Positions 46,706-64,000 of a DNA stretch of 64,000 nt are shown piece after piece (within the stretch, counting starts at the first letter, position 1; each line of letters begins with the position of its first letter). Position numbers and translations under genes: made by a program. Location of the stretch: assembly GCA_965116805.1 (NCBI GenBank), contig OZ220713.1:145724-209723 (forward strand), read 5' to 3'. The notes beneath the pieces are model-generated. The model had not been told where the DNA came from, made no database searches, and saw only the letters and a list, made by a program, of their open reading frames with translations. This stretch comes from Vicinamibacteria bacterium. Lineage in GTDB: Bacteria > Acidobacteriota > Vicinamibacteria > Marinacidobacterales > Marinacidobacteraceae.

Positions 46706-46709
46706 CCCG

Positions 46710-46794
46710 CGGAGGGGGAGGGATTCGAACCCCCGGACCCTTTCGGGCCAGTGGTTTTCAAGACCACCGCCTTAAGCCGCTCGGCCACCCCTCC
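46710..46794 (-). tRNA. tRNA-Ser (anticodon TGA)
   Basis: The reverse complement reads GGAGGGGTGGCCGAGCGG...CTTGAAAACC...long variable arm...GGGTTCGAATCCC...CCCCTCC-G. Perfect 7-bp acceptor stem. CCA not encoded. Confidence 0.8.
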
Positions 46795-47752: not shown

Positions 47753-47820
47753 CGGAGATCTCCTTCGCCTCGGGCGTCGGGGCTCCCTTCGGGCGGACGC
47801 CCCTTCCGCCCACACCCGGC

Positions 47821-47895
47821 TGGCTGGGAAGCAGGGACTCGAACCCCGATTCCACGGTCCAGAGCCGTGTGTCCTGCCATTGGACGACTTCCCAG
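47821..47895 (-). tRNA. tRNA-Gln (anticodon CTG)
   Basis: The reverse complement reads TGGGAAGTCGTCCAATGG...CTCTGGA...GGGTTCGAGTCCC...CTTCCCAGCCA. U1-A72 start typical of tRNA-Gln. CCA encoded. Confidence 0.85.
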
Positions 47896-48014
47896 TGTTG
47901 CGGGAACACATGAGGATAGCAGGATTCGATGTCGTACGCCGGCCTGACGCGGTCGTGATTCCACCGGTGTACCATGCCCCATCCGGCGGCGAAACTACCG
48001 CCTTGTCTGGCGTT

Positions 48015-48101
48015 GGAGAGGTGCTGGAGTGGCTGAACAGGGCTGCCTGCTAAGCAGTTGCGCGGGATACCGCGCCGAGGGTTCGAATCCCTCCCTCCCG
48101 C
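48015..48101 (+). tRNA. tRNA-Ser (anticodon GCT) with imperfect acceptor stem; probable attachment site (attL) of the downstream integrated element
   Basis: GGAGAGGTGCTGGAGTGGCTGAACAGG. Anticodon loop CTGCTAA. Long variable arm GCGCGGGATACCGCGC. T-arm GAGGGTTCGAATCCCTC. The 3' acceptor strand CCTCCCG gives G1.G72 and A3.C70 mismatches. Confidence 0.65.
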
Positions 48102-48241
48102 CGCCGGGGTGGTTCTCGCGTTCGTTCCTGTTCCCAAGAATGAGTTGTAATACCCCACATTTCAACATCTTATGATCTTGCGGCGTTCGGTCGCTTCCTC
48201 TATAGTCCCGTATGGCGCGTGGGACAACGCGTTGGGTAACT

Positions 48242-49387
48242 ATGGGAACATTGACTGTCGCGCGGGCCAAATCGCTCTCTGAACCCGGCCTCTACCGAGC
48301 GGACCCGACGCTCTACCTCCGGATCGCGCCCGGCGGATCGAAGTCGTGGGTTCAGCGGCTGACGATCGAAGGGCGTCGTCACGATCTCGGGTTGGGCGGC
48401 TTTCCGCTGGTAACTCTTGCCGAGGCGCGAGCCAAGGCATACGACAACCGACGGCTCGCCCGCTCCGGAGGCGATCCGCTCGCTGCGAAGCGTCGCGCCA
48501 AGACGCCGACCTTCCGGCAGGCGGCGTCGCGGACGTGCGACGCTCTCCGTCCACGCTGGCGGAACCACAAGCACGCGACGGACTGGATGGCGACCCTGGA
48601 GCGCCACGCCTATCCGGTGATCGGCGATATGAGCGTGGACCGAATCCGCCGAGAGGACGTGTTGCGGACGCTGACCCCGATTTGGACACACCGCCCGGAG
48701 ACGGCGCGACGCGTCCGCCAGCGAATGCGTGCCGTGCTGCGCTGGTGTTGGGCGCACGGCCACGTAGCGGAGAACGTCGCTGGAGAAGGGATCGACGGCG
48801 CGCTGCCGAAGATGCCGGCGGTCAGACAGCACTTCCGTGCGCTGCCGTATTCGGAGGTCGCGTCCGCGCTGGAAACGGTGGAGGCGTCACGAGCGAGCAA
48901 GGCGGCGAAACTCTGCCTCCGGTTCCTTGTCCTGACCGCGGCACGATCCGGCGAAGCTCGCGGGGCGACGTGGGCGGAGGTTGACGCGGAAGCACGGGAA
49001 TGGCGCATTCCGGGTGATCGCATGAAGCGGGGTGCGGAGCATCGGGTTCCGCTGAGCGATGCCGCGCTGGGTGTTCTCGAGCGGGCGCGGCCACTGGACG
49101 ATGGGAGCGGACTGATCTTCCCGTCAGCCCTGAGGCCGGGACACTCCCTTTCCAACATGACTCTCACGAAGATCCTGCGGGACCAGGGCCTCGCCGGCCG
49201 GACGACCGTCCACGGGTTCCGAAGCGCGTTTCGCGACTGGTGCGCGGAGACGGGTAAGCCCCGCGAGATCGCCGAGGCCGCGCTCGCCCATACGGTCGGG
49301 GGAGTGGAGGGGGCCTACTTTCGAAGCGATCTGTTCGCACGACGCCGCGTGCTCATGGACCAGTGGTCGGCCTTTGTGACTCGATAA
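48242..49387 (+). CDS. int: Tyrosine-type site-specific integrase (P4-like, DUF4102 N-terminal domain)
   Basis: 'LTVARAKSL.EPGLYRADPTLYLRIAPGGSKSWVQRL' arm-binding domain. Catalytic 'HGFRSAFRDW' and 'LAHTVGGVEGAYFRSD'. Immediately 3' of tRNA-Ser. In-frame alternative start at 48212. Confidence 0.85.
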   Translation: MGTLTVARAKSLSEPGLYRADPTLYLRIAPGGSKSWVQRLTIEGRRHDLGLGGFPLVTLAEARAKAYDNRRLARSGGDPLAAKRRAKTPTFRQAASRTCDALRPRWRNHKHATDWMATLERHAYPVIGDMSVDRIRREDVLRTLTPIWTHRPETARRVRQRMRAVLRWCWAHGHVAENVAGEGIDGALPKMPAVRQHFRALPYSEVASALETVEASRASKAAKLCLRFLVLTAARSGEARGATWAEVDAEAREWRIPGDRMKRGAEHRVPLSDAALGVLERARPLDDGSGLIFPSALRPGHSLSNMTLTKILRDQGLAGRTTVHGFRSAFRDWCAETGKPREIAEAALAHTVGGVEGAYFRSDLFARRRVLMDQWSAFVTR

Positions 49388-49511
49388 ACCATTGATTCAA
49401 TAGGATGTTATGCGATGTTCCAAACCCTGGTATCACGTCGTTTGTCACTCACGCTCTCCGATGCGGTGATTGAGCTCAACGCGGTCCTGCGAAGCGAATC
49501 GCCATCGATGA

Positions 49512-50104
49512 TCAGGGCTCCTGACGGATCCCCTGCACGAACTCCACGTATGTCACTTCCCCGTCCGGGAAGGCGATTCGCCACCGGCCGTGTCGCTTCC
49601 CGTCCACGAACGGCCCCTCGGCTACGTTTCCATCGGCATCCCTGGTGACCCACCGTCCGTGGTTCTTCCCAAACCGGAACGGGCCCTCATCAACCCAACC
49701 GGTATGGTCACGGATCACCGACTCGCCGTGCGGCTGCCCGTATCGCCGGTTCCCTTCCCCTCCGGCGCATCGCGCCGCTCCAGGATCCGATCCACGTCTT
49801 CCAGCAGCGCTACCGCCTCGACATATGACTCCGCTCACCTGCTCGTAACCGTTAGGTATTCGGTGACGGACTCCTTCGCCGTCGCGAGCAGCCCCACGGC
49901 AAACGCCACCCGCGCGTGCTGGAAACGGAACTCGGGTGGCAACTCCAATTCGTGCTCTGTCGCGAAGGCGAACGCCTCCTCCATGACCGGAACCACCAAG
50001 TCGAGATCGCCGGCCTCGACCAGCCGCTCGGTCCGGAGGAGAAGCTGGTCCAACAGGACTTCCGGCGGAAGCTGGAGTCCACCCGCCGGTGTGACCTCGA
50101 ACAC
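49512..50104 (-). pseudogene. Decayed, internally deleted and frameshifted paralog of the MORN-repeat protein gene (51886..53298)
   Basis: ORF 49835..50104 matches residues about 20-105 of the 470-aa protein ('LPPEV.LD.LL.R.E...A.DLD.....M..A.A...E..LE..P.F.F.HA..A...G...TA..SVTEYL'). ORF 49512..49838 carries three MORN_2-like units ('EGPFVDGKRHGRW'). No signal peptide. The two pieces are in different frames. Confidence 0.4.
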
Positions 50105-50421
50105 TAGGGGCGCCTAGAAACGTGCCAACAGGCCGAGTCGGTTCTCGCTCACGGCGCTCAGCGCGGTCCGATGTGGGGTAAAAGGTGTATCGGTGGGTAG
50201 CCGCATACGCGATTCACTCGGGCGTGGCTCTACCCGCCGCTAGAGCGATAGGGCTACTCTCCCGGCACGGAGCCGGTGCGGTAGAGCTCGCGAGTCTGGA
50301 CGACTCCCCTACTCGACATCACGACGGGGACGCTCAGGAGTACCTGGGCACGGAGGTCCGAATCCAGGTTAGAGGACGCAGCGAATAGTGTGGTGTAATG
50401 CGTGTACGACCTGCGTAACGA

Positions 50422-50961
50422 ATGGAGGATAGTGCGATGCCCGACGAACCAAGCTCTCAGCAACTTGAACAACTGCCTAGACACATGAAGCACCTTGTGT
50501 ACGTGCTCTGCGCCACGCTCCTCTTGTCGACGATTGCGGTCGTCGTCTATGCCATCGTGATGTCTTTCAAGATTGGGCTAGCTAAGAATGTCTTACCCGG
50601 AGCTGACGCCGGATTCATAGCTGTGACGGCTGCAATCTTCGGCATTCTCATTACCGGCGTCTTCGTGTTCATGACCTTCCGCATCGACCGCGGTGCAGTA
50701 ATCGAGGCTCGTTCCACCGCACTACGGGAGGCCGGGAAGGTAACGGAGTCTGCAAGGACCGAGGCACGAAGGGCGGCTGAGCAAGCGATAGTGGAGAAAA
50801 AGGCAGAAATGCTGAGGGAGGCCGGGCAAGCTAGTGAAGAGTTCGCGCTGAGTATCGCGAACAGGCTGAGGGAACACACGATTACAGTTCTACAGGAAAG
50901 GAATGACAACCTTGCTTCGGACATTCCGAGACTTACCGCAGAGGACGCGCGGAACGGCTAA
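50422..50961 (+). CDS. Hypothetical membrane protein (2 TM helices plus charged coiled-coil tail), low-GC foreign composition
   Basis: About 50% GC with A/T-rich codons, unlike the 70% GC host. Two hydrophobic helices, then 'EARSTALREAGKVTESARTEARRAAEQAIVEKKAEMLREAGQ'. Confidence 0.45.
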   Translation: MEDSAMPDEPSSQQLEQLPRHMKHLVYVLCATLLLSTIAVVVYAIVMSFKIGLAKNVLPGADAGFIAVTAAIFGILITGVFVFMTFRIDRGAVIEARSTALREAGKVTESARTEARRAAEQAIVEKKAEMLREAGQASEEFALSIANRLREHTITVLQERNDNLASDIPRLTAEDARNG

Positions 50962-50984
50962 CCTGTTGGTACGCCAAAGCCATG

Positions 50985-51278
50985 GAGCAAAACGGGAAGA
51001 TCGATCTGGGTGCGAGGACCGTCGAATCGGCTAGACGGTTCCTGACGGGATTTGACTCGGCTAACTACAAGGAATTTCGCAGGGCGCTGAGCGAGGTCCG
51101 CCCGCCGGGCGGTGCGGACGCGGGGCCACTTCCCGAATGACCGGGCGGCAACCAAGCTGATCTACCTGGCGCTGCGCGACCTCAAGAACGGATGGCGCGC
51201 GCCGCCGCTGTTCTGGCACCAAGTGCGGCCGGAGTTCGCGATCCGCTTCGGCGAGCGCTACGTGCTGGACGGCTCGTG
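50985..51278 (+). mobile_element. Remnant of an IS256-family (mutator-type) transposase gene, C-terminal about 95 codons, frameshifted
   Basis: Translation gives 'FPNDRAATKLIYLALRDLKNGWRAPPLFWHQVRPEFAIRFGERYVLDGS*', the hallmark IS256 transposase C-terminus. The upstream piece is in another frame. The N-terminal about 300 codons are absent. Confidence 0.55.
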
Positions 51279-51885
51279 AGCGGACATCGCGATCCCCGCT
51301 CCGTACCTGTCGGCGCTGCCCTGATGGCGCGGATGGACAGCCCCCGGAGATCGCTCCCGGACCCAGCCCGGCGGCACACGCCAACGGGGGTTCGGACACT
51401 CGGGACCACCGTCCCGACCGCAACCGTTACTGTAGTGAGATCCGGGCGGACCCATCAGGTCCGCCCAGAACGGCCCAAACACGGAAGTTCTGACAGTCCC
51501 TCACCGGGTCGGTCCGTCACTGCGTTCGCGTACGCGCCGACGCATCACGTCCAGTGCACGCGCAACGTCGCGGTGAGCGTCCTGTAGTCCTGGGCCAAGC
51601 TTGTCACCTGCCCGTCGAGCCGCTCGAACTCCTGCCGCAAGATTGCGTTCTCCGCTGGCTGCCGCTCGATTCGCTGCCGCAAGGCTTCGATCTGCTCGCC
51701 TTGCCGCCGCTGTTCCAGTTCGTAGTGCGTCAGGTCAGAGGCGCTCCTCGAACGAGACCGTCAGGAGCGCGCGCCACCGTGTTCTCGACTCCGGCGAGGA
51801 ACGCCGCCCACTCCGCCGGCTAGGGCAGTTGAGACTCCGTACGGGCATCCGGCGCATCGAGAAGGCGGACGGGAAGCCGCTGCAG

Positions 51886-53298
51886 TCAGTCTCGTCCTAG
51901 GTTGTAGTAGCTCCGCGGACAGCGACAATCGCTCCCACCTCTTCCGGCCATGGCCTCGAGAAGGTCGCACGCCTGCGCCATCTGTTCACGAAACAGCCCT
52001 ACTTTTTCCGGAAGAACCATCCCCATAGTGAACTGGCAGCGCTTCAGTTCAGCGTCCAGCGCATAGAAGATCAGATGATCGGGTCCCCATTGCCCACCGA
52101 CTCGTACTTCGCAGTACGAGAGTCTCGTGTTGTTCGGATCGAATGCATCGGGATTGTTGGGAAAGCCGGGAATCTCACATGCGCCGGTGGTAGCGGAATC
52201 GACCCTTGGCTGGCCTTGGGAAGTACGCGTCCTACCGGCGCTCGTGGCTGACGGGCTGTCGCGAGTGGTGCCTTGATTTGTGGCGCCCGGGGCCGGAAAG
52301 TCTTCCTGCACATCCTGCCGTTCCCAAGCGCCCGGCCTACCGTCCACGAACCTATTCTCGTAGGTGGATCCGTCTTCCTCCTTCAGCACCCAAACTCCAT
52401 GGCGCTTTCCGTCCACGTAAGGCCCTTCTCGCGTGCGTCCGTCCGCACCCTCCTCCACCCATTGGCCGTCGCGCTGTCCGTCCACGTACGACCCCTCGCG
52501 AATGACTCCGTCCGCATCCTTCTCCACCCAATGGCCATCGCGTGTGCCATTGACGTAAGACCCCTCCTGAGTGCTCCCGTTCGACAACTTGTGTACCCAA
52601 CGGCCGTGCCGCTCGCCGTCCACATATGAACCCTCCTCTAGAGTTTTTCCCAACAGGCCCCGGTGCACCCACTTGCCATGCCTCTTTCCTAACCGGAACG
52701 TTCCTTCGTGCCCTGCATGGCTGACTCGATCTCCAGCCCGCTTTAGTCGTCCCGCCCCTGTGGCTCGGCCTTCCGAACAACCACCCGTCCACTCAAGCCT
52801 TTCATCGGTGCCAAAGAGAAGACGCTCAGGTATGACGGACTTCGGTATCCAGATGAAACAATCCGGCCGCCCGATCAGTGCCATCCAACACGCGGATGCT
52901 GCCGCTTCGTGACAGTCGGGTCCAACGCGGGTTCTAAGGCCATCTAGTTCTTCCAATAGCGTTAGAGCCTCCCAATAGAACTCCCCCTCCCTGCCGACAC
53001 TCTTGAGGTATTCCGTTACCGATCGCTCCGCAGTTTCGATGCGACCTGCCTCCAATGCCATCTGCGCGTGCACGAAATGGAACTTCGGGCGAAATTCGAG
53101 GCCGTACTCTTCCTGAAGGGCCAAGGCTTGCGACATCACGGCAAGCGCACCGTCGAGATCGTCAGCGGCATTCAGCGTTTCGGCTCGCACCAACAACCGG
53201 TCCAACTGCACCTCTGGCGGTAGCTGGCGTCCACCCACCATCCCGCCGATGCAGAGCGACAACACCAAGAAACGAACTACGTTCTTCGTTGTTTTCAT
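51886..53298 (-). CDS. Secreted MORN-repeat (MORN_2 variant) protein
   Basis: Signal 'MKTTKNVVRFLVLSLCIGGMVGG'. Six tandem 'EGSYVDG.RHG.WV.K..DG' units. About 58% GC. GAGAAGG SD. Start overlaps the stop of the HU-like gene. Confidence 0.6.
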   Translation of the reverse strand: MKTTKNVVRFLVLSLCIGGMVGGRQLPPEVQLDRLLVRAETLNAADDLDGALAVMSQALALQEEYGLEFRPKFHFVHAQMALEAGRIETAERSVTEYLKSVGREGEFYWEALTLLEELDGLRTRVGPDCHEAAASACWMALIGRPDCFIWIPKSVIPERLLFGTDERLEWTGGCSEGRATGAGRLKRAGDRVSHAGHEGTFRLGKRHGKWVHRGLLGKTLEEGSYVDGERHGRWVHKLSNGSTQEGSYVNGTRDGHWVEKDADGVIREGSYVDGQRDGQWVEEGADGRTREGPYVDGKRHGVWVLKEEDGSTYENRFVDGRPGAWERQDVQEDFPAPGATNQGTTRDSPSATSAGRTRTSQGQPRVDSATTGACEIPGFPNNPDAFDPNNTRLSYCEVRVGGQWGPDHLIFYALDAELKRCQFTMGMVLPEKVGLFREQMAQACDLLEAMAGRGGSDCRCPRSYYNLGRD

Positions 53299-53600
53299 AC
53301 CTTCTCATCCGACAAGCCAAGACGGGGAGATGTAGCTCCCGACAGTGCACAGGTGCCCAACAATCGGCTGACCGCCCATCCTCGGGGACGACTCACCGGT
53401 TCGTCGGTGCGCGGGTTCCGCGCCTTTCCCGTCTTTCGGGGGGCGGCTTGGAACACCCCGAACCTCCGCAGCACCATGTGGTCGCCGCGCTGAGGCGCTG
53501 AGCCAAGGTTCTCGAACAGCGTCTCCACCGCGCGCCGCGCGGCGAAAAGCTCCAGATTTGCTACCTCTGTGGCCCGGTTGATGAGGTCCGTTTTCACCAC
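53295..53600 (-). CDS. HU/IHF-family DNA-binding protein-like
   Basis: 'VKTDLINRATEVANL..AVETLFENL..GDHMVLRRFGVFQAAPRKTGKARNPRTDEPV' follows the HU pattern (K-T-ELI...GD.V.L.GFG.F....R..RNP.TGE). GTG start. The C-terminal 30 aa are atypical. Confidence 0.5.
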   Translation of the reverse strand: MVKTDLINRATEVANLELFAARRAVETLFENLGSAPQRGDHMVLRRFGVFQAAPRKTGKARNPRTDEPVSRPRGWAVSRLLGTCALSGATSPRLGLSDEKV

Positions 53601-53716
53601 GACGGTTGGATCTTATGCGGCATGCGACCCGTAGTTCACCCGCGATCCTGGAGCCGGGCGGAAGGTTACGACGGCGGGTCCGGCCAGGAACACGGCCCAG
53701 AGGTCCATTGCGCCGC

Positions 53717-53745
53717 TATAATAAGTCATTGATTTATCCCGGCAA
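53717..53745 (-). promoter_or_regulatory. Candidate sigma70-type promoter for the HU-like/MORN operon (-35 TTGCCG, 17-nt spacer, -10 ATTATA on the minus strand)
   Basis: AT-rich stretch containing TATAAT on the plus strand, equivalent to ATTATA on the minus strand, with TTGCCG 17 nt upstream. About 110 nt upstream of the HU-like start. Confidence 0.25.
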
Positions 53746-54115
53746 TACGGCCCGTCTCAGACCCGTGTTATCACTTGCCTTATCATGTTTTCGTTTGCCG
53801 AAACGCTCGGGGCCATCGGGGAAGTAGCGAGAATGCTCACGCGCAAATGCGCTTGATGGTGTACCCAGCGCACGGCAGGAACGACAACACGGGCGACAGA
53901 CGTCAGGGAGGTCAGGAGTCGGATGTGATGAGGTTTGAGCGCAGCCCCGATGACCTCGGGGCTGCGAAATCGGCAGTAGTTGCCGATCGCCGCTACGGAT
54001 CTCCTCTCCGGGACGTTCCACGTGGTCCGGAACAACTGCCGTTGCCTCGCCGCGAGGCTGTCGCGCGCCCTCGGTCTTCTTCACGCTGTACGCAACAGCG
54101 AGAGAAGCACGTACA

Positions 54116-55456
54116 TTGCCGCAGCGGGAGACCACAAGGGTGCCCACCCAAGACTATCCGCTCGGCGGAAACACAGGAATGACCAAGAGAAAGAAGAAGA
54201 CTCGGGACCGCGCGGGTGACCTGTCGTTTGTCCGAGCTTTCTTACGGCAGCTATTGAAGGACAGCAGCTTTAGCTCAGACCCTCGCGACATGCTTAGAGG
54301 TGCCTCATGGTTCCGGGCGGCTGAGGGTATTCTGACCCTCCCTTCAAGCGAATACAGAGAGTACAAACGGGTTCTCACCCGGTTAGACAAACAACTTGCC
54401 CCGGACGACGATCTATCTCGTGCCGCCATCGAATCTGCCCTACTCGATGCTGTATTCGCAACCGTGGACATTCCTCAAAGCAGAAACTCCGATGCACAGA
54501 TCCGCATGGACGAGGCTGTCGCGGCGATTCAAGAGCTCGCTAACAGAAAGCTCGAGACCTACGAGTGCTGGCTTAAAGTCGGCGGTCTGGACAAGCGATC
54601 GCTACCATCAGCCTTCGGCCGCATCCGATTCGTTGCATTCACCAACTACCAACGTCGCCAGCTCCGCAAGAGGTTCAAAGCCAAACAACGTCCCTTCTTG
54701 GCTGCCTCAGAAGAGCGCCTCTTGGGCTCCAATGTTGCCATAGTGAAGTGCGAAGCCCGTGACGTCAAGGCTGCACCAGCATTGGCCGAAAGGGCGCTTC
54801 AAGCAACCATCGAGTGCCTAAACTTCTTTTCCGACCTGCTTGACTACAATCATGGTTGGCTGTTCCTACCCGGCGAAGGTGAACCAACACTTAAGACGAG
54901 GATCGCCGTCGACGGGAATGGGGCCTTCGTTAACGAGTCACACGCTACCGGACCGATTGGAGGGTACGCAATCGCAAGGCTCCGCTCACAAACCGGCATT
55001 AAGCGTGCCGTCAAACGAGTTAGTGCTCTACTCCAAGGAGAGAGCACGGCCGTTGACGCACTCTTGCTGAGAGCGGTCCGCTGGGCAGGACGAGCTACAG
55101 TTGCACCCGTGCGCGAGGAGGGGTTCATTCTGAACACGATCGCGTTGGAATGCATCGTCTTGCCCAGTGTGAATCAAGGTGAGTTGAGCCACAGGTTTTC
55201 TCAGAGAATTGGAAGAATGCTGTCGAGGACGGTTCGTGATCGGCGTGAGTTCCAAAGGATGGCGACAAGACTCTATAACGTTCGGTCAGAAGTCATTCAC
55301 AGCGGCGCCTACCGCGTGAGTGAGGATGATGCTCACAACATGCGACTCCTCACAAAGCATGTGATACTCACACTGTTAACCGATTCGAGCGTAAGACGTT
55401 TTGCGAAGGAGAAAGAGCTGAATGACTGGTATGAGGACAGGATGATGGGAAGCTGA
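54116..55456 (+). CDS. Hypothetical protein with C-terminal HEPN-type Rx4-6H motif (candidate RNase effector), low-GC
   Basis: About 53% GC. C-terminal 'RLYNVRSEVIHSGAY' matches the HEPN R-x4-H motif in the Abi_2/RiboL-PSP style context. N-terminal 300 aa unassigned. Starts: TTG at 54116 (GAGAGAAG SD) or ATG at 54179. Confidence 0.45.
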   Translation: MPQRETTRVPTQDYPLGGNTGMTKRKKKTRDRAGDLSFVRAFLRQLLKDSSFSSDPRDMLRGASWFRAAEGILTLPSSEYREYKRVLTRLDKQLAPDDDLSRAAIESALLDAVFATVDIPQSRNSDAQIRMDEAVAAIQELANRKLETYECWLKVGGLDKRSLPSAFGRIRFVAFTNYQRRQLRKRFKAKQRPFLAASEERLLGSNVAIVKCEARDVKAAPALAERALQATIECLNFFSDLLDYNHGWLFLPGEGEPTLKTRIAVDGNGAFVNESHATGPIGGYAIARLRSQTGIKRAVKRVSALLQGESTAVDALLLRAVRWAGRATVAPVREEGFILNTIALECIVLPSVNQGELSHRFSQRIGRMLSRTVRDRREFQRMATRLYNVRSEVIHSGAYRVSEDDAHNMRLLTKHVILTLLTDSSVRRFAKEKELNDWYEDRMMGS

Positions 55457-55536
55457 TCGCGCTGGTAGGAAGTCTACTGTCGAGTTGACTCATCGGTGCA
55501 CGGTCTGCTGAAACGGCACGTCGGAAAGAACCGCGA

Positions 55537-56559: not shown

Positions 56560-56676
56560 ATGGAGTCCCCGCGCATCTCATCGAATGTGTCATGTGGTGT
56601 TCGGCGCCGAGGCACTACGCCTCGCGGACTGCCTCGAAGAGCTCGGACGGGCGGGCCAGAACCTCGTATTCCGCCA

Positions 56677-57303
56677 CTAGACGGATACAGGTGATTGCGC
56701 CGATTGGTTGGTGGGTTCGGGGCGCGCGGCGAACTGGTTGATCCAGGCAGCGACGTTGCCGAACCGGGCGTGAGAGAGGTGGATGGCGCGCGCGACCTGG
56801 TAGATGGAGAGGCCGCCCCGCGCGAGCAGACGAACGAGATTCTTCGTATGGATGCAGGCGAAGATGTGCCAGAGCTGGTCGCGCTCCACGGGGGTGAGCT
56901 CGGCCGCGCGGAAGATACGGCCGAGCGCGGCGCCATGCGGGCGGTTCGGATAACCCGCGAGATAGCTGGCGGAAAGACCGGCAAAGAACAGGTCCGGATT
57001 CTCTGGTGTGACGGGCGGTGTGGCGCGGGCGCGAGGATGATCGAAGCAGCTCAAGGGAAGAGGGTTGCGGGGAAGGCGTCTCTCAGGATTGAAACCGAAG
57101 CAGCGGGCGGGTTTGTCCGGCCCGCCGACGAGAGAGCCGTGTTCGCCGAGGCCCTCAGCTCTCGGATCGCCGGCCCGGAGGAGACATTCCTCGACCGCTT
57201 GGCGTTCGGCCGCCGCCCACAGTTCTTCAGGAGTCGATTCGTGTGCCGGGTCATCGGGCGGAGGATGGAAGTAGAAGTGACGGATCTTCACGACATCGAG
57301 CAT
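56677..57303 (-). CDS. Hypothetical protein; possible partner of the AbiEii-like nucleotidyltransferase, C-terminal HTH-like segment
   Basis: 13 nt downstream of the NTase gene on the same strand. 'LSIYQVARAIHLSHARFGN' is HTH-like. Protein-like composition (W, Y, F, H), unlike the plus-strand antisense ORF. Confidence 0.35.
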   Translation of the reverse strand: MLDVVKIRHFYFHPPPDDPAHESTPEELWAAAERQAVEECLLRAGDPRAEGLGEHGSLVGGPDKPARCFGFNPERRLPRNPLPLSCFDHPRARATPPVTPENPDLFFAGLSASYLAGYPNRPHGAALGRIFRAAELTPVERDQLWHIFACIHTKNLVRLLARGGLSIYQVARAIHLSHARFGNVAAWINQFAARPEPTNQSAQSPVSV

Positions 57304-57315
57304 TGTTGTGTGCCC

Positions 57316-58047
57316 TCAGCGTTCCCAGGGGGTGTCGGTTCGGAACGATCGGGACGGCACCCTGGAACGGAGTGCGTCCGTGATGATCTCATCAGTGATG
57401 CGGACGGCGTTGGAGGCGGCACGGCGGCTGACCGGTCTGATGAGTGGCTGGCCATGGTTTGCCAGCCAGCGGTCGGGCAAGGAACGCAACTGCGCCTGGA
57501 TCGCCCGGAGATCGGGAGTATCGACAGCGCATAGCGCGGAATGGAGCGAGCCGGGCTCGCGTTCGCTGGCGATGGCCAGGTCGTAGAGGTCGCGCGGGAG
57601 GAGCCGCCCCTGCAGGAACATGCGGTAGTGGAGCTTCTTGGCGAGTATCTCGGCGGTTGCTTCCAGGTGGACAGGGGTGTTGCGGACAGTGTCCGAGGAC
57701 GCCGGAAGCCTAGTGAGAGGGGGGCTGGTGGCGAGGGTCACTTCGCCAAGCTGATCATTCTGGCGGAAGTGGATCGTGGCGAGCCCAGCATCGATATCGA
57801 CGGCATGAGCGCCCAGATGGCGCTGTACATGATCGCGGAACGAGAGCCGTTCGGTGAAGAGGCCTTCGTAGGGTGCGGGCCCAATGAAGAGATCCACGTC
57901 GGTGCTGTGACGGTGCGCCCACCGGGCAGCAAGCGCCGTCCCGCCGCCGAGCCGCATGTGGTGTTGGCCACCAAGGTAGTCGCCAAGGGTGCCGCGCACG
58001 GCTTCGAAGAGTTCGGCCGGGCCGGCGGGCAGGTCGTATTCCGCCAT
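57316..58047 (-). CDS. Nucleotidyltransferase, AbiEii/DUF1814 family (type IV TA toxin-like)
   Basis: N-terminal 'LGGGTALAARWAHRHSTDVDLF' is the AbiEii GGTAL...R.S.D.D signature. 243 aa. Confidence 0.55.
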   Translation of the reverse strand: MAEYDLPAGPAELFEAVRGTLGDYLGGQHHMRLGGGTALAARWAHRHSTDVDLFIGPAPYEGLFTERLSFRDHVQRHLGAHAVDIDAGLATIHFRQNDQLGEVTLATSPPLTRLPASSDTVRNTPVHLEATAEILAKKLHYRMFLQGRLLPRDLYDLAIASEREPGSLHSALCAVDTPDLRAIQAQLRSLPDRWLANHGQPLIRPVSRRAASNAVRITDEIITDALRSRVPSRSFRTDTPWER

Positions 58048-58175
58048 CAGACGCTGCTGGTGTCCTCGTGGGACATCGGTGCGGATCCCAAGCGACCGTT
58101 ACCCATGATAGCGCCCCAGTCTCCAGGAGACTTCAGGCACACTCCCGCTCCGACCGGCGGTAAGCACACGGATGC

Positions 58176-60254
58176 TCATATCTGGCCGGCTTCCCGCGCG
58201 CGCCAGTAGGGGCGGTCGCGGGGGAGGTAGTGTGGCTTGAGATAGACGCGGGTGGCGGGCTGCGCGTTGGTCCCGTCGTAGGGGAGGATGATCGCCTGGC
58301 AGTTCTCGAGGAGGGAGAAGGCGCGGGAGTGGAAGAGCGGCTCCCGCTGCTCGCGGTAGGACTTCGAGGTGCCGAGGGTGCCTTTCGCCCCGCCGGCGCG
58401 GGCGGTGATGACCGAGAAGCCGGGCTTGGCGGACTCCGTGAAGGAGTAGGAGGGGGAGAGCCGGAGCACCTTGCCGCACATGTTGGACGCCAGCTCGGCG
58501 CTGCTGTCGTCGCTCAGCGACAGGAAGACCTTGGTCCGGAGGGTCTGGAGGAGCGTGCGCCAGGCGTCCTGTCCCGACAGCACGCTCTTGAGCGAGCTGA
58601 TGGACTGGGTGGCGACGATCGGGATGACGCGGGACTGGCGGGTGAGGGCGAAGGCCTTTTCGTCGCCGGCGGGGTCGTCCTCTCCCACGGACGCGAAGCT
58701 CTGGTATTCGTCGCAGAGGAACACGGCGGGGCGGAAGTAGCGGTTGGGGTTGAGCTTGATCTGCGCCGGGCGGGCGAGGAGCGTCTGGAGCCAGGCGTTC
58801 TTCAGCAGGACGCCCTCGGTGCGTGCGAGGGCGGGGTTGGCTCCGGCCGGCATGTTGAGGGCGATGACCTTGCCCGACTCGATGAGTTGCTGGAGCGGCG
58901 GGAGGCGTTGGAGGAGGCCGGTGGCGACGGGCGTCGTCGCGCCCGGTGGGGGCGACGGGAGGTCGTGGGGGACGGGCGCCGCGGGCGGCGGCGGTGGCGG
59001 GCAGAACACTCGGGCCACATCCGGGAGGTCGAACATGGAGAGGAAAACGCTCACACCTTCCACGATGGAGGTCCGGAGCTTGGTATCGAGCTGGAGCCAG
59101 TCGTAGTGGTACCAGCGCTCGATGGCGGCGACGCGCTGGGCATGCTCGCTCGGCGGGCGGTAACTCGCCTCGACGGTGGCCTCGACCCCGACGGACCTGA
59201 GGGAATCGAGCAGCTCCTCGTCATAGGGGACCCGGATGCCGTCGCCGTCGTCGCTGGCGGGTTGCCACGGGTATTCGAGCAGGCCGTCGTCGCGTTTGCG
59301 GAGAATGTCGTGCCTCGAAGCGACGATGTAGTAGGTGGGCGGGGGGCCGTCGAGCGCCTTGGCCTGTTCGATCTTCTGGCCGATGCGCTGGGGGTCAATG
59401 GCGCAGTGATAGAGGTCCTGGAACGTCACCCACTGGTCGGGGAGCGCCCGGTGGAGTTCGATCAGCCAGCGGATGAGGTTGGTGTACGCCTGCTGCCAGA
59501 AGGGCTCCTTGCTCTTGCCGAAGAGCTGGTTGAGCAGCGAGGCGACGGTGTAGGCGAGCGAGTAGCTGTCCAGGGAGGACGCGAGGGGGTTCCACTGCCA
59601 GCGGCCCCCGAGGGCGAGTTCGATGTAGTCGTCGCCCCGGCCGGCGTCTTCCAGGTCCGCGCGGATGTCGTGGCAGAAGTCGCCCTTGACTTCGAGGACG
59701 AGAGCGGCGGCCCGCTTCTGCGGGTCCGCGGACTGCCACGAGAGGAGCTGCTGCGCGAAGGGCCGCATGCAGGCGGAGGTCTTGCCGGTCCCGACGGCGC
59801 CGAAGACGGCGATCCCGGTATACAGGCCGCGCTCGGGGAGCGTGAGCCAGGAAGGCCGGGTGATTTCGCGGGGCTCGGTGGGATGGTGGAACTCCCCGAC
59901 CACGAGAGAAAGAGAGTTGTCGGCGGGCGAGGTGGGCCAGGGCGGCAGGGTGCCGCGGCCGAAGCGGCGGTCCCGCGTGCGGGAACCGAACCAGAGGCGG
60001 TAGGAGCTGGTGACGACCATGACGCCGATGAAGGCCATGACCGACGGCATGAGGAGATGCCAGGTGCGGATGACCGCGTAGAAGCCGGGGTCTTCGAAGG
60101 CGATGAGGTCGAGGATGGGAACGTCGCCGGGCGCGGGGAAAGGGCGCGCCACGGCGGACCACGCGAGCACAACGCACGCGAGAAAGAAGGCGACGACGAC
60201 CCGCCAGCTGAGAAGTCGGTTGGCCGCTTCGGCGGCGCCAGCGAAGCGGTTCAA
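58176..60254 (-). CDS. Type IV secretion coupling protein-like ATPase (VirD4/TraG/TraD family)
   Basis: Two N-terminal TM helices. Walker A 'GIAVFGAVGTGKTSACMRP'. 'VFLCDEYQSF' (Walker B-like). 'QTLRTKVFL'. The start is uncertain (TTG at 60254 proposed). The first 150 codons of the 841-aa ORF are low-complexity and overlap repeat DNA. Confidence 0.6.
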   Translation of the reverse strand: MNRFAGAAEAANRLLSWRVVVAFFLACVVLAWSAVARPFPAPGDVPILDLIAFEDPGFYAVIRTWHLLMPSVMAFIGVMVVTSSYRLWFGSRTRDRRFGRGTLPPWPTSPADNSLSLVVGEFHHPTEPREITRPSWLTLPERGLYTGIAVFGAVGTGKTSACMRPFAQQLLSWQSADPQKRAAALVLEVKGDFCHDIRADLEDAGRGDDYIELALGGRWQWNPLASSLDSYSLAYTVASLLNQLFGKSKEPFWQQAYTNLIRWLIELHRALPDQWVTFQDLYHCAIDPQRIGQKIEQAKALDGPPPTYYIVASRHDILRKRDDGLLEYPWQPASDDGDGIRVPYDEELLDSLRSVGVEATVEASYRPPSEHAQRVAAIERWYHYDWLQLDTKLRTSIVEGVSVFLSMFDLPDVARVFCPPPPPPAAPVPHDLPSPPPGATTPVATGLLQRLPPLQQLIESGKVIALNMPAGANPALARTEGVLLKNAWLQTLLARPAQIKLNPNRYFRPAVFLCDEYQSFASVGEDDPAGDEKAFALTRQSRVIPIVATQSISSLKSVLSGQDAWRTLLQTLRTKVFLSLSDDSSAELASNMCGKVLRLSPSYSFTESAKPGFSVITARAGGAKGTLGTSKSYREQREPLFHSRAFSLLENCQAIILPYDGTNAQPATRVYLKPHYLPRDRPYWRAREAGQI
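60081..60152. repeat. Direct repeat copy A (about 70 bp, about 90% identical to 60372..60445) within the 5' region of the coupling-protein gene
   Basis: CGGGGTCTTCGAAGGCGATGAGGTCGAGGATGGGAACGTCGCCGGGCGCGGGGAAAGGGCGC versus CGGGGATCTTCGAGGGCGATGAGGTCGAGGACCGGAACGTCGCCGGGCGCGGGGAATGCGCC. Both encode ..FPAPGDVP(I/V)LDLIA(F/L)EDP.. on the minus strand. Confidence 0.6.
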
Positions 60255-60371
60255 GGGAAGAGCGGCAGCCCGGCCGGCGGCGTGGCGGAGGAGCGCGGCG
60301 TGGCGGACGACGGCGCAGCCGAAGGAGAGGGTGACGCAGGCCGGTGCCGCGTAGTGCCACGCCCAAGCACC

Positions 60372-60445
60372 CCGGAGGCGCGGGGATCTTCGAGGGCGAT
60401 GAGGTCGAGGACCGGAACGTCGCCGGGCGCGGGGAATGCGCCGTA
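60372..60445. repeat. Direct repeat copy B (partner of 60081..60152)
   Basis: See copy A. Confidence 0.6.
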
Positions 60446-60462
60446 GCGGAGCGTGAGGCAGG

Positions 60463-60572
60463 GCGCGTCGAGGGCCGCGGTGATGGGGACGACGAGGCGC
60501 GTGGGCCGGGTTCTCGAGGTACTCCACGAGGACCGGCGCGCGGGTGGTGCCGTCATCCCGAAGTTGCCTTCC
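60463..60572. repeat. Left copy of an about 105-bp imperfect inverted repeat flanking the IS110-family region
   Basis: The reverse complement of 60470..60570 aligns at about 85-88% with 62158..62265 (..GATCCCTGCGGGAAGGCAA.T.CGGGATGA...CCACCCGCGC...GTGGAGT.CCTCGAG.A.CCGGCCCACGCGCCTCGT). Confidence 0.6.
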
Positions 60573-60871
60573 CGCAGGGATCAGTCGCGCCGTCGGCGCG
60601 GGCAGGGAGCGACCTCCGACACCTAGCAGAAGGGCTAGCCTGAATGCGGGTTTCGGGACCGTAGATCGGCCGATCGGAGGGGGGTCGCTTGTCTCTTCCA
60701 TACTTGGCGATTCCGGCCCGATTCACGGGTCGGGGACGGTGGTCGGATCGCGGGGTCGCATGGCCGTAAGGGGCCGCTAGGGAGTCCTGATCGCCACCGT
60801 CCTTCCTCCGTCCTGAATGGATACTCGAGCATCGAGGCTCGCACGACAAGCACAGGAAAAGGGAAGAACCC

Positions 60872-61828
60872 ATGAACAGCATCCTTCGCACCGTCGGGAT
60901 CGACATCTCCAAGGACTGGTTCGACGCCTTCGCCGCACCCGAGGGCGGGACAGCCCGGTTCTTGAACAACCGGGCTGGCTTCCGCCAGCTGATCGCCTGA
61001 ATCGGCTCCGGAGTCGACCGGATCGCGTATGAGCCCTCGGGCACCGTCCACCGAGAGCTTGAGGAGACGCTCCTGAAGGCCGGCCTCCCGCTCTATGCGA
61101 TCAACCCGTTCCAGGTGCGGTCCTTCGCCCGCTCGCTGGGGCGGCGCGCCAAGACCGATCCGGTGGACGCCCGGATGCTGGCCACCATGGCGGCGTCCGT
61201 CGAGGATCTGCGGCCGACCGAGGCGCGGTCGGAGGGGCAGCACGACCTCGCCGAACTCCAACAGATCCGGGACGGTCTGCGCCGGGATCGGGTCACCGCC
61301 ATCAACCGCGGCAAGCAGTTGCGCACCCCCGTGGGCAAGCGGCTCAACAAGCAGCGGCTGGGGCAGATCGAGCGGCAGCTGGAGGTCATCGACGCCGAGA
61401 TCCGGACGCGGCTCGCGGAGGAGAAGACCTTGCAGCGCCGGGCGGAGATCCTGACCTCCATCCCGGGCATCTCGGACATCACCGCGGCCGGTCTGGTCGT
61501 CCTGATGCCCGAGCTCGGCACGCTCACCGGCGCACGGGCCGCCAGCCTCGCGGGGCTGGCCCCGGTCACCCGGGAGTCCGGGCAGTGGAAGGGACGCGGC
61601 TTCATCCAGGGCGGCCGGCACCGGGTCCGCCGGCTGCTCTACATGCCCGCGCTGGTCGCCGCGCACCACAACCCCGGTCTCAAGCACACGTACCAGGCGC
61701 TCCTGGCTCGGGGGAAGCCGCCGAAGGTCGCCCTGACGACGGTGATGCGGAAGCTCCTCGTCCTCGCCAACGCCCTTGTGCAGCAGAACCGCACCTGGAC
61801 GGCGCTTGCCCCAGGCGCTCACGGGTGA
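60872..61828 (+). mobile_element. IS110-family transposase gene with an in-frame TGA (60998-61000) at the position of a conserved Trp; pseudogene or sequencing error
   Basis: N-terminal 'MNSILRTVGIDISKDWFDAFAAPEGGTARFLNNRAGFRQLIA*IGSGVDRIAYEPSGTVHRE' is one continuous frame with the C-terminal 'DPVDARMLA...' domain (ORF 61115..61828). IS110 transposases have ..LIAWL.. at this position, so TGG changed to TGA. Confidence 0.7.
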
Positions 61829-62027
61829 GCGTTCGGTGAGGGTATCGAGGACAGCGAGCACGGAGAGGCGGGAGCCGCTTTTGCCGCCGGTTGCGCAGCT
61901 TTCGGGGTCAGCGTTTTGCGGCAAAAGGACAGCACCCCCCTTTTGCCGCTGCTTTTGCCGCTTCCCGATCACACCGTCGTTCCCGAAAGCCGTTGTCCCC
62001 GTTGCCTTTCGGGCAGGGCATCCTCTC

Positions 62028-62059
62028 CCCCGTTCTCCGCGTTTGCGCGGAGAACGGGG
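62028..62059 (+). other. Perfect 14-bp GC-rich stem-loop (CCCCGTTCTCCGCG-TTTG-CGCGGAGAACGGGG) in the palindrome-rich region downstream of the IS110 transposase gene
   Basis: Read directly from the sequence. No T-tract follows. The surrounding 61,830-62,160 holds several further palindromes (TTTTGCCGC/GCGGCAAAA, CCCGAAAGG/CCTTTCGGG). Confidence 0.5.
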
Positions 62060-62157
62060 CGGGGAGCGACCCCCCTCCATCTTCGGGATGGACGGCCCGG
62101 AAACGGGCGGCTTTTGCCGCCCCTTTTGCCGCTTTGGGGGTCGCTCCCCGGCCGCGC

Positions 62158-62265
62158 CTGCGGCGCGAGTGATCCCTGCGGGAAGGCAAATCCGGGATGA
62201 TCGCGCCACCCGCGCCCGGGCCCTGGTGGAGTTCCTCGAGGATCCGGCCCACGCGCCTCGTTAAC
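62158..62265. repeat. Right copy of the about 105-bp imperfect inverted repeat flanking the IS110-family region
   Basis: See left copy (60463..60572). Confidence 0.6.
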
Positions 62266-62759
62266 GGATGATCGGACTCGTTCGGAGCGGCTCCACTTGA
62301 CATGGATACTCCCTGCCCAACTCTCCGCCCCGAAGCGGAGAGTGCGGTTCGGGAGTACGCGAGCGAACCGTAGCAATGCCAACGGGTCTTGCAGGGCACG
62401 GTGGCGAGAACGGGGGTAGCGGAAGTGCTAGCGGAAGGGGGTGCTGACTTCCGCTAGTACAGACGTGGCCCCCGACGTGGCCCCGTGGGGGATGACTTAC
62501 CCGCGGGAGTCGGGCGTCCGTTCGTGAACGGCCCGGTGCGTTCGAACGGCGACCACCACCAGTTGTGACAGGTTGTTCAGGCCGAAACCGCGGGTGCTCC
62601 GTCAGCCGTCGTCGGTGCGGTGTCGGCGCGAGAAGGCGACGGGGAAGGGTCTGCCATCGGACTCGTTTTCCCGGCGGGCGACGTTCCGGGAACCGACGTG
62701 GAGTTCTCTCGTCGTGGGGTTTGGCGGGGGTGTCGACCACAGGGGGACCTCCGGCTGGG

Positions 62760-63811
62760 TTAGAGAGCGAGCATGTCGGGAGCGAGGCGTTCAGCGACGT
62801 GAGTGGAGTAGGCGTCGATGCACTTCGCCGGCCCACGGGCGTCGCTAATGCGCTGCTCGATGCGCAGCGCGCGTCTGCCCGCTTCGAGCCAGCCGCCGTG
62901 CCTGTCGAGCTGCGAGAAATCGCCGGTGGAGTTGGCGAGCTCGACGTCATCAAGGAGTTGCTGGTCTGTTGCGGAGTGAGCAACGGCGGGCGCCGGTGGC
63001 CCGCACCATTTCTCCAGGATTGCGGCGTTCCTCGCGGCAGCGTCGTCCGTGCGGGTGACGGCAACGACGTGCACGGCGTCCCCTCGGTTACGGAGGGCTT
63101 CCCAGAGAGCAACGTGGGCGGCGGCCCAGGACCGGATGCCGGCGGACCGGGGCGGGCGCCGGTCGGCGGTGTCCGTGTAGACGAACGTCGTGGTCGTCCG
63201 ATCGCCCGCGATGGGGAGCTTCAGTGCGAAGTAGCGGTGGGTGGAGCGATCGGTACGGGGCCGCGATAGACGCGCTGGGGAAGGGTGGCGACGGGGATAC
63301 CGAGACTCTCGAAATAGGCCAGCTTCTCGGGTTCCGTGGGCAGCCAGTGGAGATCCTGGTGTTCGAGGACGTAGTCGAGCGAGAGGAGCCGGCGCATGGT
63401 GATTTCCGGGGAGGCAGGCTTGCGGTGACGGTTGTTCTCGATCCCAAGCGCGCGGTAGAGCGGGCGGGCGTGGATGTGGCAGACACCGGTCGGCCGATAG
63501 GGACGGCGATCGGGGAACCTGGCTTCGCGGGCAATCCCGGCTTCGATCAGTGCCACGGCGACCTGGTCCGCGCGCTGTCGGCAGACGCCGTAGCAGTCGG
63601 CGTACTGGCGACGGGTGAACACGCCGGAGTGGAGGCAGACCAAGGCGAGCCACTCGGCCTGCCGCTCCGTCCAGCCGAGGCCACGAAGGGTCGCGGTCCG
63701 CTCCGCGAACGTGGGGAGCGCGGTGGCGGCTGCGTCGTTCATGGGCAGGCCGGGGCGGCGAGAAGGGGCCGGAGCCGGTCCGCCCAGATGGCGACCCGCG
63801 CAGCGGTCCAC
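62760..63811 (-). pseudogene. Possible frameshifted gene for a mobile-element protein (replication/relaxation-like, wHTH N-terminus); two overlapping minus-strand ORFs 63221..63811 and 62760..63653
   Basis: The 196-aa piece ('..WLALVCLHSGVFTRRQYADCYGV..HIHARPLYRALGIENNRHRKP..RRLLSLDYVLEH..') and the C-terminal 150 aa of the 297-aa piece ('YFALKLPIAGDRTTTTFVYTDTADRRPPRSAGIRSW..') both look protein-like. They are in different frames, overlapping near 63225-63250. Confidence 0.3.
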
Positions 63812-64000
63812 GCTGCCACCGGGCTGACGATGCGGGCGACCACGCCAGCCCGGGTTTCGAGCCAGCCGTTAGGCCAGGTCCTTACGGGATTGGCGGCGTC
63901 GCGAGCGGTCGTTGCGGAGGCGGTGCCGGCTTCGAAACCGGCGTGATAGCCGACGAGCGTGTATTGCAGTGAAATCCAACGCACGAGGGCAGCATTGTAG

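Follow-up and report, generated by a model that had tools for sequence, protein, structure and literature searches.

Genomic islands of the P4/CP4-57 type, such as the enterobacterial pathogenicity islands, have an Arm-DNA-bind_3 integrase gene just downstream of a transfer RNA (tRNA) gene, a direct repeat of the tRNA 3' end, a patchy composition, mosaic cargo and decay through insertion sequences (IS). Integrative mobilizable elements (IMEs) are defined by an integration module, the lack of a complete mating-pair formation (MPF) apparatus, and the possession of a mobilisation protein (a relaxase or else a protein that binds oriT) together with an oriT (PMC10484663; reviewed in PMC11389934). 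The locus described here lies in a 64,000-nucleotide stretch of contig OZ220713.1 from a Vicinamibacteria bacterium (Acidobacteriota; assembly GCA_965116805.1), the whole of which is hereafter called the window, and consists of a 22.9-kb island at the 3' end of a tRNA-Ser(GCT) gene. I conclude with considerable confidence that it is, in a sponge-associated Vicinamibacteria genome, a decaying, IME-like member of a family of compact islands, the backbone of which comprises an integrase (int), an HU-like protein, orf85 and orf327 plus a type IV coupling protein (T4CP). It has all the traits of P4/CP4-57-type islands listed above, and differs from them in its host, in an integrase type that uses two neighbouring tRNA-Ser genes, and in its backbone. 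With IMEs it shares an integration module at one end, the absence of mating-pore genes, partial conjugation functions and defence cargo. Unlike them, it has no canonical relaxase or known oriT-binding protein, its T4CP is the only recognisable transfer protein, the partner of this T4CP, orf327, belongs to no known family, and the copy at hand is partly inactivated. Set beside an integrative and conjugative element (ICE), it possesses a T4CP and lacks MPF genes and a relaxase; having neither type IV secretion genes nor a canonical relaxase, it is therefore not an ICE.

The original prediction, made from the letters of the window, was of an ICE/IME-like element integrated at the 3' end of tRNA-Ser(GCT), with a P4-type integrase 140 bp after the tRNA, patchy GC content, and no right-hand copy of the tRNA 3' end (attR) before position 64000, which made it longer than 16 kb. 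ARAGORN and Pfam recovered the tRNA and the integrase at that spacing (open reading frame (ORF) 48212/48242-49387, the 381-amino-acid (aa) form starting at 48242), and the GC content, 0.69 left of the tRNA, is 0.545-0.60 in 1-kb windows from 50 to 57 kb. Exact-protein look-ups gave two metagenome assemblies of the same population. In ENA ERZ25072195, contig_27 (L001) spans window positions 47317-60921, and in Logan ERR14375724, contig 117913 (L002) spans 48074-58424; each departs from the window by one 1-nt indel, a T in the tRNA gene that is the sole difference over 13.6 kb. Another ENA contig, ERZ25072195 contig_60 (L004), overlaps window positions 62179-64000 (1,822 bp) with 0 mismatches and then continues for 9.7 kb. 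The low-GC stretch in this contig ends about 6.9 kb past the window end, and attR sits exactly where the GC content recovers and a TonB-dependent receptor gene begins. By blastn-short, the tRNA segment 48082-48097 is repeated at attR with a 16-nt exact core (E=0.001). Alignment stretches the attL/attR match to 24 nt with one indel, the window agreeing at 23 of 24 positions, and the match becomes the perfect 24-mer TTCGAATCCCTCCCTCTCCGCCGC when the tRNA sequence of L001 and L002 is used. A mismatch-pattern search had overlooked this attR because of the 1-nt indel and a different left flank. No further copy of the tRNA 3' end occurs within the 64-kb window at up to 3 mismatches, and the search between attL and attR revealed no internal att-like repeat. 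Counted from the first base of attL to the last base of attR, the island measures 22,866 bp. Both the contig extension and the direct-repeat search that the original prediction had advised thus led to the 24-bp repeat, 6.9 kb past the window.

The second comparison that had been advised, with related genomes lacking the insertion, was made by probing the TonB-receptor protein against one genome per species, which yielded 24 loci in metagenome-assembled genomes (MAGs) of Vicinamibacteria and 'Candidatus Marinacidobacterium'. In the window, tRNA-Gln(CTG) and tRNA-Ser(TGA) (46709-46794), both identified by ARAGORN, lie just upstream of tRNA-Ser(GCT) on the opposite strand. At least 17 of the 24 loci show the same tRNA trio with tRNA-Ser(GCT) directly abutting the receptor gene, and the site is therefore empty there. 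The junction at the empty site reads tRNA...TTCGAATCCCTCCCTCTCCGCCGC|GCCGCCGGCCCG and equals the left side of attL followed by the right side of attR. The repeat, the empty sites and the integrase together bear out the predicted mobile element at tRNA-Ser(GCT) that extends beyond the window.

An attR-type junction is also present at this site in four other genomes (L008, L015, L009 and L010). The receptor gene of L008 is 98% identical to that of the window, and neither L008 nor L015 shows any relation to the window island in the 10 kb of island sequence available; in L009 and L010 less than 250 bp of island is visible, the stretch in L009 matching the right end of the window island. Since different islands lie at the same position in other genomes, the tRNA-Ser(GCT) site is a hot spot. 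Homologues of the integrase (75-88% identity), whole or broken and often present as fragments amid other island remnants, are found at the 3' end of tRNA-Ser(TGA) in L011 and L018-L021. This second tRNA gene has 17 nt of the att core in common with the first, and nothing is inserted at it in the window. With 1.3 kb between them, the two divergent tRNA-Ser genes are a double integration hot spot. A motif AAT(C)A(A/G)TGA(C/T)TT was also noted in the right ends of the islands of five genomes, 12-22 nt before the crossover core (loci L008, L015, L009 and L010 among them, near positions 10018, 105 and 233), and is possibly an integrase-binding site.

The T that distinguishes the window from the other assemblies affects the target gene itself. 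The window tRNA-Ser(GCT) is one T short at 48097/48098, its 3' acceptor strand reading CCTC-CC against CCTCTCC, and it scores 43 bits with the Rfam tRNA model, compared with 57-58 bits for the two neighbouring tRNAs. With the extra T of L001 and L002 the acceptor stem is perfect (GGAGAGG/CCTCTCC), whereas the window version has a bulge; the missing T is either an assembly error or a genuine tRNA lesion. The L002 contig begins inside the tRNA, at window position 48074, 8 nt before the att core, and this assembly break could reflect a mixture of occupied and empty sites in the sample.

The original prediction had left room for an integrase without its catalytic residues. In an alignment with three integrases of the family, R235, K262, H324, R327, H350 and Y359 are all kept and invariant, a full R-K-H-R-H-Y set, and the PDB matches of the protein are CP4-like integrase domains. 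It is about 50% identical to the integrases of three related loci (L006, L032 and L033). As the integrase and the att sites are intact, excision of this copy may remain possible.

Among the ORFs scanned with Pfam and NCBIfam across the 22.9 kb there is no mating-pore component and no relaxase; of the predicted 'ICE/IME-like' nature, IME-like at best has stood and ICE has fallen. The predicted VirD4/TraG-like coupling ATPase is real: traG, on the minus strand, contains a 692-aa ORF (58176-60254) with TrwB_AAD_bind and TraG-D_C domains, a Walker A motif GAVGTGKTS and a Walker B motif FLCDEYQ. This T4CP has more than 5,000 homologues, mostly in MAGs of Acidobacteriota, and a plasmid database searched with it returned three distant matches only (21-27% identity). 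The second transfer-related gene of the prediction, described as replication/relaxation-like, exists and is the one that I call orf327; an assignment to Replic_Relax is not supported. Once a frameshift is repaired, orf327 has more than 2,200 matches among proteins of about 325 aa, with full-length identities that reach 87%, and not one of these proteins has a Pfam domain. Replic_Relax (PF13814) was matched neither by the window fragments (E<=0.05) nor by 55 homologues (E<=1), which gave no other Pfam match and no NCBIfam match either. Searches of Pfam, NCBIfam, PHROGs and PADLOC were negative for orf327, orf85, orf208 and orf169 alike. In the AlphaFold model of orf327 (pLDDT 85.5), the N-terminal part is a winged helix with matches to MarR-type domains, and the C-terminal alpha/beta domain has no significant PDB fold match. 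A winged-helix type region is presumably also found at the N-terminus of Replic_Relax proteins, but membership of orf327 in that family is unsupported by the profile searches.

Could the island be a prophage or a phage satellite rather than anything related to conjugation? A P4-type integrase at a tRNA gene would suit such an origin, and the best match of orf327 in a viral fold library is a phage protein, the uncharacterised gp146 of Bacillus phage G (E=1e-4). No gene for a capsid, terminase, portal or tail protein came to light, however, and Pfam and PHROGs scans detected no virion, packaging or phage replication gene; PHROGs was blank for the ten proteins tested (orf85, orf327, the T4CP and seven cargo ORFs) with the exception of one repeat protein. 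The presence of a VirD4-type T4CP, whose homologues lie inside type IV secretion system (T4SS) clusters, argues further against a phage origin, to which almost no credit can be given.

Relatives of the island define its backbone. The clearest is L006, on a 4.57-Mb contig, where genes for the integrase, HU, orf85, orf327, a 795-aa T4CP and a type I restriction-modification (R-M) system follow one another on one strand. L007, whose contig starts at HU, carries the same element, interrupted in traG by an IS3-type insertion, and L032 has the gene order of L006 without a called HU gene. The orf327 and traG of the window share 79-88% identity with their counterparts in L006 and L032, and HU is 57-61% identical to the HU genes of L006, L007, L033 and L034; HU directly follows the integrase in relatives, whereas in the window it is displaced and on the other strand. 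In L033 and L034, a type I-E CRISPR-Cas system comes after int-HU-orf328. They are the same element between different flanking genes, which is evidence of recent mobility in the family. Four different orf327 copies are present on the L006 contig. The spacer between orf327 and traG contains an inverted repeat (TAGCGGAAGT-N20-ACTTCCGCTA) that is perfectly conserved in four copies of the element (window/L004, L006, L007 and L032), and that I propose as a candidate oriT or operator. No description of the element family or of 'Candidatus Marinacidobacterium' was found in the literature searched, and judging by that literature the backbone family, like its Pfam-less core protein, seems to be undescribed.

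The context in which orf327 and the T4CP occur elsewhere gives the best indication of what they do. Two loci, L037 and L038 (GCA_028874635.1), have a VirB/Trb cluster of the MPF-T-like kind with TrbC/VirB2, VirB3, VirB4, CagX/VirB9, TrbI/VirB10, TrbL/VirB6, VirB8, a 327-aa gene, a T4CP and VirB11. The 327-aa gene of L037 (8680-12460 region), located between virB8 and the T4CP gene, encodes a protein 42% identical to orf327 (E=1e-65), and the T4CPs are about 57% identical. Since an orf327 homologue and a T4CP stand together inside a full VirB/Trb cluster, orf327-T4CP is a conjugation gene pair, and the compact islands retain this pair without the pore genes (VirB2, B3, B4, B6, B8, B9, B10 and B11 are all absent from the window island). 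No Pfam relaxase is encoded within 10 kb on either side of the L037/L038 homologue, which makes orf327 a candidate non-canonical DNA-processing protein. The same cluster could be taken to mean that the island was once a self-transmissible ICE whose T4SS genes were deleted, and that no dedicated mobilizable family exists; the heavy decay of the island (pseudogenes, IS elements, an inversion) would fit such a history. But the compact backbone recurs without MPF genes in L006, L007 and L032, with int-HU-orf85 right upstream of orf327 and the cargo right after the T4CP. The MPF genes of the full cluster occupy the position that int, HU and orf85 hold in the compact elements, and these elements also lack VirB11, the gene that comes after the T4CP in the full cluster. 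Descent of this island from an ICE by deletion is accordingly unlikely.

The copy in the window has suffered several lesions. Its orf327 is split into pieces of 173 aa and 104 aa; the homologues being full length and the window copy frameshifted, orf327 is here a pseudogene. Between orf327 and traG lies the IS110-family element of the original prediction, with DEDD_Tnp_IS110 and Transposase_20 domains in its transposase (60872-61828). Unlike an intact member of the IS110 family, it has an interrupted reading frame, with an in-frame TGA at codon 43 (60998-61000). Joined to the right side of the IS is an inverted extra copy (~330 nt) of the spacer between orf327 and traG together with the 5' end of traG, which produces 200-nt imperfect inverted repeats around the IS; one possibility is that this copy was carried over from another family member. 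Compared with L006, the complex of the two (60690-62308, 1.6 kb) is an insertion that splits orf327 from traG. As for traG itself, its first N-terminal repeat (60365-60556) is out of frame relative to 790-aa relatives, which leaves out of frame the 64 initial codons of the 795-aa form of L006. The remaining 692-aa ORF is colinear with natural homologues of 680-710 aa and has the same start as homologues of 694-709 aa; because it begins as these natural short forms do, traG is not called dead.

These lesions raise the question of whether they exist at all, that is, whether the island is a fully functional IME and its frameshifts and nonsense codon are assembly errors. The 1-nt deletion in the tRNA relative to two assemblies does indicate that single-base errors or variants occur, and the intact integrase and att sites and the resemblance of the 692-aa traG to natural short forms are what a functional element would have. 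Yet the split of orf327 is called identically in ENA contig_60 and in Logan contig 681062, both with 0 mismatches to the window, and the traG region of L001 is identical to that of the window, the tRNA base being the sole difference. The 1.6-kb IS110 complex, moreover, is a structural change and not a base error. A fully functional element is thus very improbable, and the island is best regarded as a decaying one.

The arrangement of the genes also departs from that of the relatives. The transfer module and the integrase lie on opposite strands; the minus strand carries, from right to left, orf81, orf327, the IS110 complex, traG, AbiEii, orf208 and an AbiEii remnant. Three paralogous MORN-repeat genes with hydrophobic N-termini are found in the island, one of them broken. 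The outer two (49512-50104 and 65016-66446) are inverted relative to each other, are 75-83% identical in DNA sequence, and bracket a segment of about 50.1-65.0 kb. Re-inverting this segment would, I infer, restore the canonical order int, orf85, orf327, traG. An alternative is that the island is a composite of an integrase-only tRNA island and an unrelated T4CP module, assembled for instance by recombination with a paralogous element. Several observations could be read in this way: the integrase shares only about 50% identity with its counterparts in L006, L032 and L033 while orf327 and traG reach 79-88% with L006 and L032, the module lies on the strand opposite to int with HU displaced, a diverged spacer copy possibly from another family member adjoins the IS110 element, and genomes harbour several paralogous copies. 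However, there is no sign of an internal att-like repeat between attL and attR, re-inversion between the MORN paralogues would bring back the canonical gene order, and exchange of integrases between modules is usual in such families. A composite origin is therefore rather unlikely, and I retain the interpretation of a single, rearranged member of the backbone family.

Several points nevertheless weigh against that interpretation. The backbone order is broken, so that some parts may come from a second element. The right 6.9 kb of the island was read from another assembly of the same population and not from the contig of the window. No T4CP is detectable in L033 and L034, and the link between orf327 and T4CP is hence frequent, not obligatory. 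The island has no canonical relaxase or proven oriT, and the word mobilizable accordingly draws solely on the T4CP and the gene context. No excisionase was recognised in the island, and the 40-mer spanning the attP junction is absent from JGI metagenome contigs, where no excised circle was seen. Finally, to judge from its resemblance to natural short forms, the 692-aa traG may still be functional.

The island entered tRNA-Ser(GCT) at its final 24 bp through a P4-type integrase; the 24-mer copy brought by the element rebuilds the tRNA at attL, and the displaced original stays at attR, in front of the TonB-receptor gene. The family to which it belongs has the backbone int, HU-like protein, orf85, orf327 and VirD4/TraG T4CP, followed by variable cargo for defence or secreted proteins. 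As for transfer, an intact member of the family would excise, and its DNA would next be processed within the spacer between orf327 and traG, after which the T4CP, probably with orf327 as a DNA-processing partner, would dock on the VirB/Trb T4SS of a co-resident conjugative element. As mating-pore genes are lacking, transfer could only proceed through such a borrowed T4SS, which would make the element an IME and not an ICE. The copy in the window is decaying, as seen in the frameshift of orf327, the IS110 complex with its nonsense codon, the loss of the first traG repeat and the inversion of the module; low-GC cassettes have also entered it, one of which took the place of part of an AbiE-like locus. 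This copy has probably lost the ability to transfer.

The kind is already known, and the island is a textbook example of foreign DNA beside a tRNA gene: its ends are clear, and relatives have the site empty. Its wider interest is that it gives access to a large family of small islands related to transfer, so far unannotated, which move defence genes among uncultured sponge symbionts, and the orf327-T4CP pair may include an unrecognised conjugation DNA-processing enzyme of Acidobacteriota, a phylum in which conjugation has hardly been studied. A bolder proposal, put forward tentatively since it is more doubtful than probable, is that int-HU-orf85-orf327-T4CP represents a new IME family that shuttles defence systems between symbionts by pirating VirB/Trb systems of the L037 type, with orf327 as a new relaxase or as the DNA-processing partner of the T4CP. 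On this reading the family is abundant, not only among sponge-associated Acidobacteriota but also in neighbouring phyla, given the more than 2,200 homologues of orf327 and more than 5,000 of the T4CP, several to a genome, and the defence cargo moved would comprise type I R-M, type I-E CRISPR-Cas and a cyclase/HEPN-like cassette. For annotation, window positions 48082-64000 and the 6.9 kb beyond them are accessory DNA. The features of the island are listed in Table 1.

Table 1. Features of the tRNA-Ser(GCT) island, with positions in the window or, beyond its end, window-equivalent positions (TM, transmembrane).
Feature	Position	Strand	Basis and remarks
tRNA-Ser(GCT)	48015-48102	+	integration target; ARAGORN
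attL core TTCGAATCCCTCCCTC(T)CCGCCGC	48082-48104	+	T-loop to tRNA 3' end
P4-type tyrosine integrase, 381 aa	48242-49387	+	Arm-DNA-bind_3, Phage_int_M and Phage_integrase (Pfam); gene call in two assemblies
Broken MORN-repeat gene, two ORFs	49512-50104	-	paralogue of the 470-aa and 476-aa MORN proteins; translations, tblastn, blastn
Membrane/coiled-coil protein	50422-50961	+	ORF and gene call
Putative C-terminal IS256-family transposase remnant	51112-51279	+	Transposase_mut E=0.002, 17.4 bits against a 21-bit cut-off
MORN-repeat protein, 470 aa, hydrophobic N-terminus	51886-53298	-	weak MORN and LIC20035-adhesin matches; paralogy
HU/IHF-like DNA-binding protein	53295-53600	-	Bac_DNA_binding E=1e-10
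425-aa protein, C-terminal RSEVIH (Rx4H) motif	54179-55456	+	low-GC cargo; translation
323-aa protein, predicted class III nucleotidyl-cyclase fold and C-terminal helical domain	55588-56559	+	low-GC cargo; AlphaFold2 (AF2) pLDDT 84
Second AbiEii remnant, 31 codons	56591-56677	-	tblastn 55% over 31 aa, internal stop; direct repeats D3, D11
orf208	56677-57303	-	between AbiEii and AbiEii remnant; gene call; no family match
AbiEii-family nucleotidyltransferase toxin, 243 aa	57316-58047	-	Pfam AbiEii E=3e-11; weak PADLOC AbiEii matches
VirD4/TraG-type coupling protein (T4CP, traG)	58176-60556	-	Pfam, NCBIfam, tblastn with TraG795 of L006
IS110-family element	60690-61977	+	insertion point mapped against L006, L007 and L032
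Inverted extra copy of orf327-traG spacer and traG 5' end	61978-62308	+	74-78% identity; inverted repeat, blastn against L006, L032 and L033
Inverted repeat TAGCGGAAGT-N20-ACTTCCGCTA	62417-62456		orf327-traG spacer
orf327 pseudogene	62763-63742	-	frameshift near 63257-63278; six-frame reading
orf81	63739-63984	-	homologue of the orf85 that precedes orf327 in relatives; tblastn 59% identity
Island beyond the window	64000 to attR, 6.9 kb		read from L004; orf169, 476-aa MORN protein, Peptidase_C1, Trypsin_2, repeat/TM protein, 107-aa TM protein
attR	70924-70947		outside the window, read in L004; same-strand copy of tRNA 3' end

In the cargo, the original prediction had named an AbiEii-like pair. 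In the AbiE type IV toxin-antitoxin systems, the AbiEi antitoxin stands upstream of the AbiEii toxin. The AbiEii toxin is present, but there is no gene between traG and AbiEii to encode an AbiEi antitoxin, and the downstream orf208 has no AbiEi match. The start of the second AbiEii remnant overlaps the stop of orf208, and the remnant is cut off at the edge of a low-GC cassette; by its position, orf208 is a candidate antitoxin for this lost second toxin. The low-GC cassette consists of two plus-strand genes (54179-56559), truncates the second AbiEii gene and shows no Pycsar or CBASS match. It corresponds to the HEPN/cyclase cassette of the prediction, the cyclase half of which is supported by a predicted fold. 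Of the 71 PDB matches that the 323-aa protein obtained with Foldseek at E<=1e-3 (best 5.5e-6, probability 1.00), the 50 that were listed are all class III adenylyl or guanylyl cyclases, and D77 and D117, which from the resemblance of their motif, not from a structural superposition, I take to be the metal-binding aspartates, are invariant. Pfam, NCBIfam, PHROGs and PADLOC give no match for this protein. The HEPN half, the 425-aa protein, can be named a candidate by its RSEVIH motif alone; Pfam, NCBIfam, PADLOC, PHROGs and PDB sequence searches were all negative for it. In L035 the cyclase homologue has another neighbour, and the pairing with the RSEVIH gene is thus not fixed.

The predicted IS256 fragment is supported by the sub-threshold Transposase_mut match, and not by tblastn, in which an intact IS256 transposase from L036 found no match to 51112-51279. 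The membrane/coiled-coil protein next to it has sub-threshold matches only (DUF4199, E=0.00026, 21.9 bits against a 32.3-bit cut-off; PtuB of PADLOC, E=0.006), while NCBIfam and PHROGs gave it no match. In the part read from L004, the gene for the 476-aa MORN protein (L004 7297-8727, window-equivalent 65016-66446) is on the plus strand, and a low-GC trio at the island's right end (L004 4214-6581, window-equivalent 67162-69529) encodes a 166-aa tandem-repeat protein with a C-terminal TM segment, a Trypsin_2 protease and a Peptidase_C1 protease, the genes of the last two overlapping by 4 nt. The 166-aa protein matches PHROG 30808, a family of unknown function.

The region left of the island was considered as a second island, at tRNA-Ser(TGA), since L025 and L026 lack 42.5-46.7 kb of the window; the idea was abandoned because those host genes are also found there in closer relatives. 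Within this region, outside the island, a host-conserved gene (44100-45215) codes for a protein with fn3, GmrSD_C nuclease and Excalibur domains, and adjoins a gene for a beta-propeller protein.

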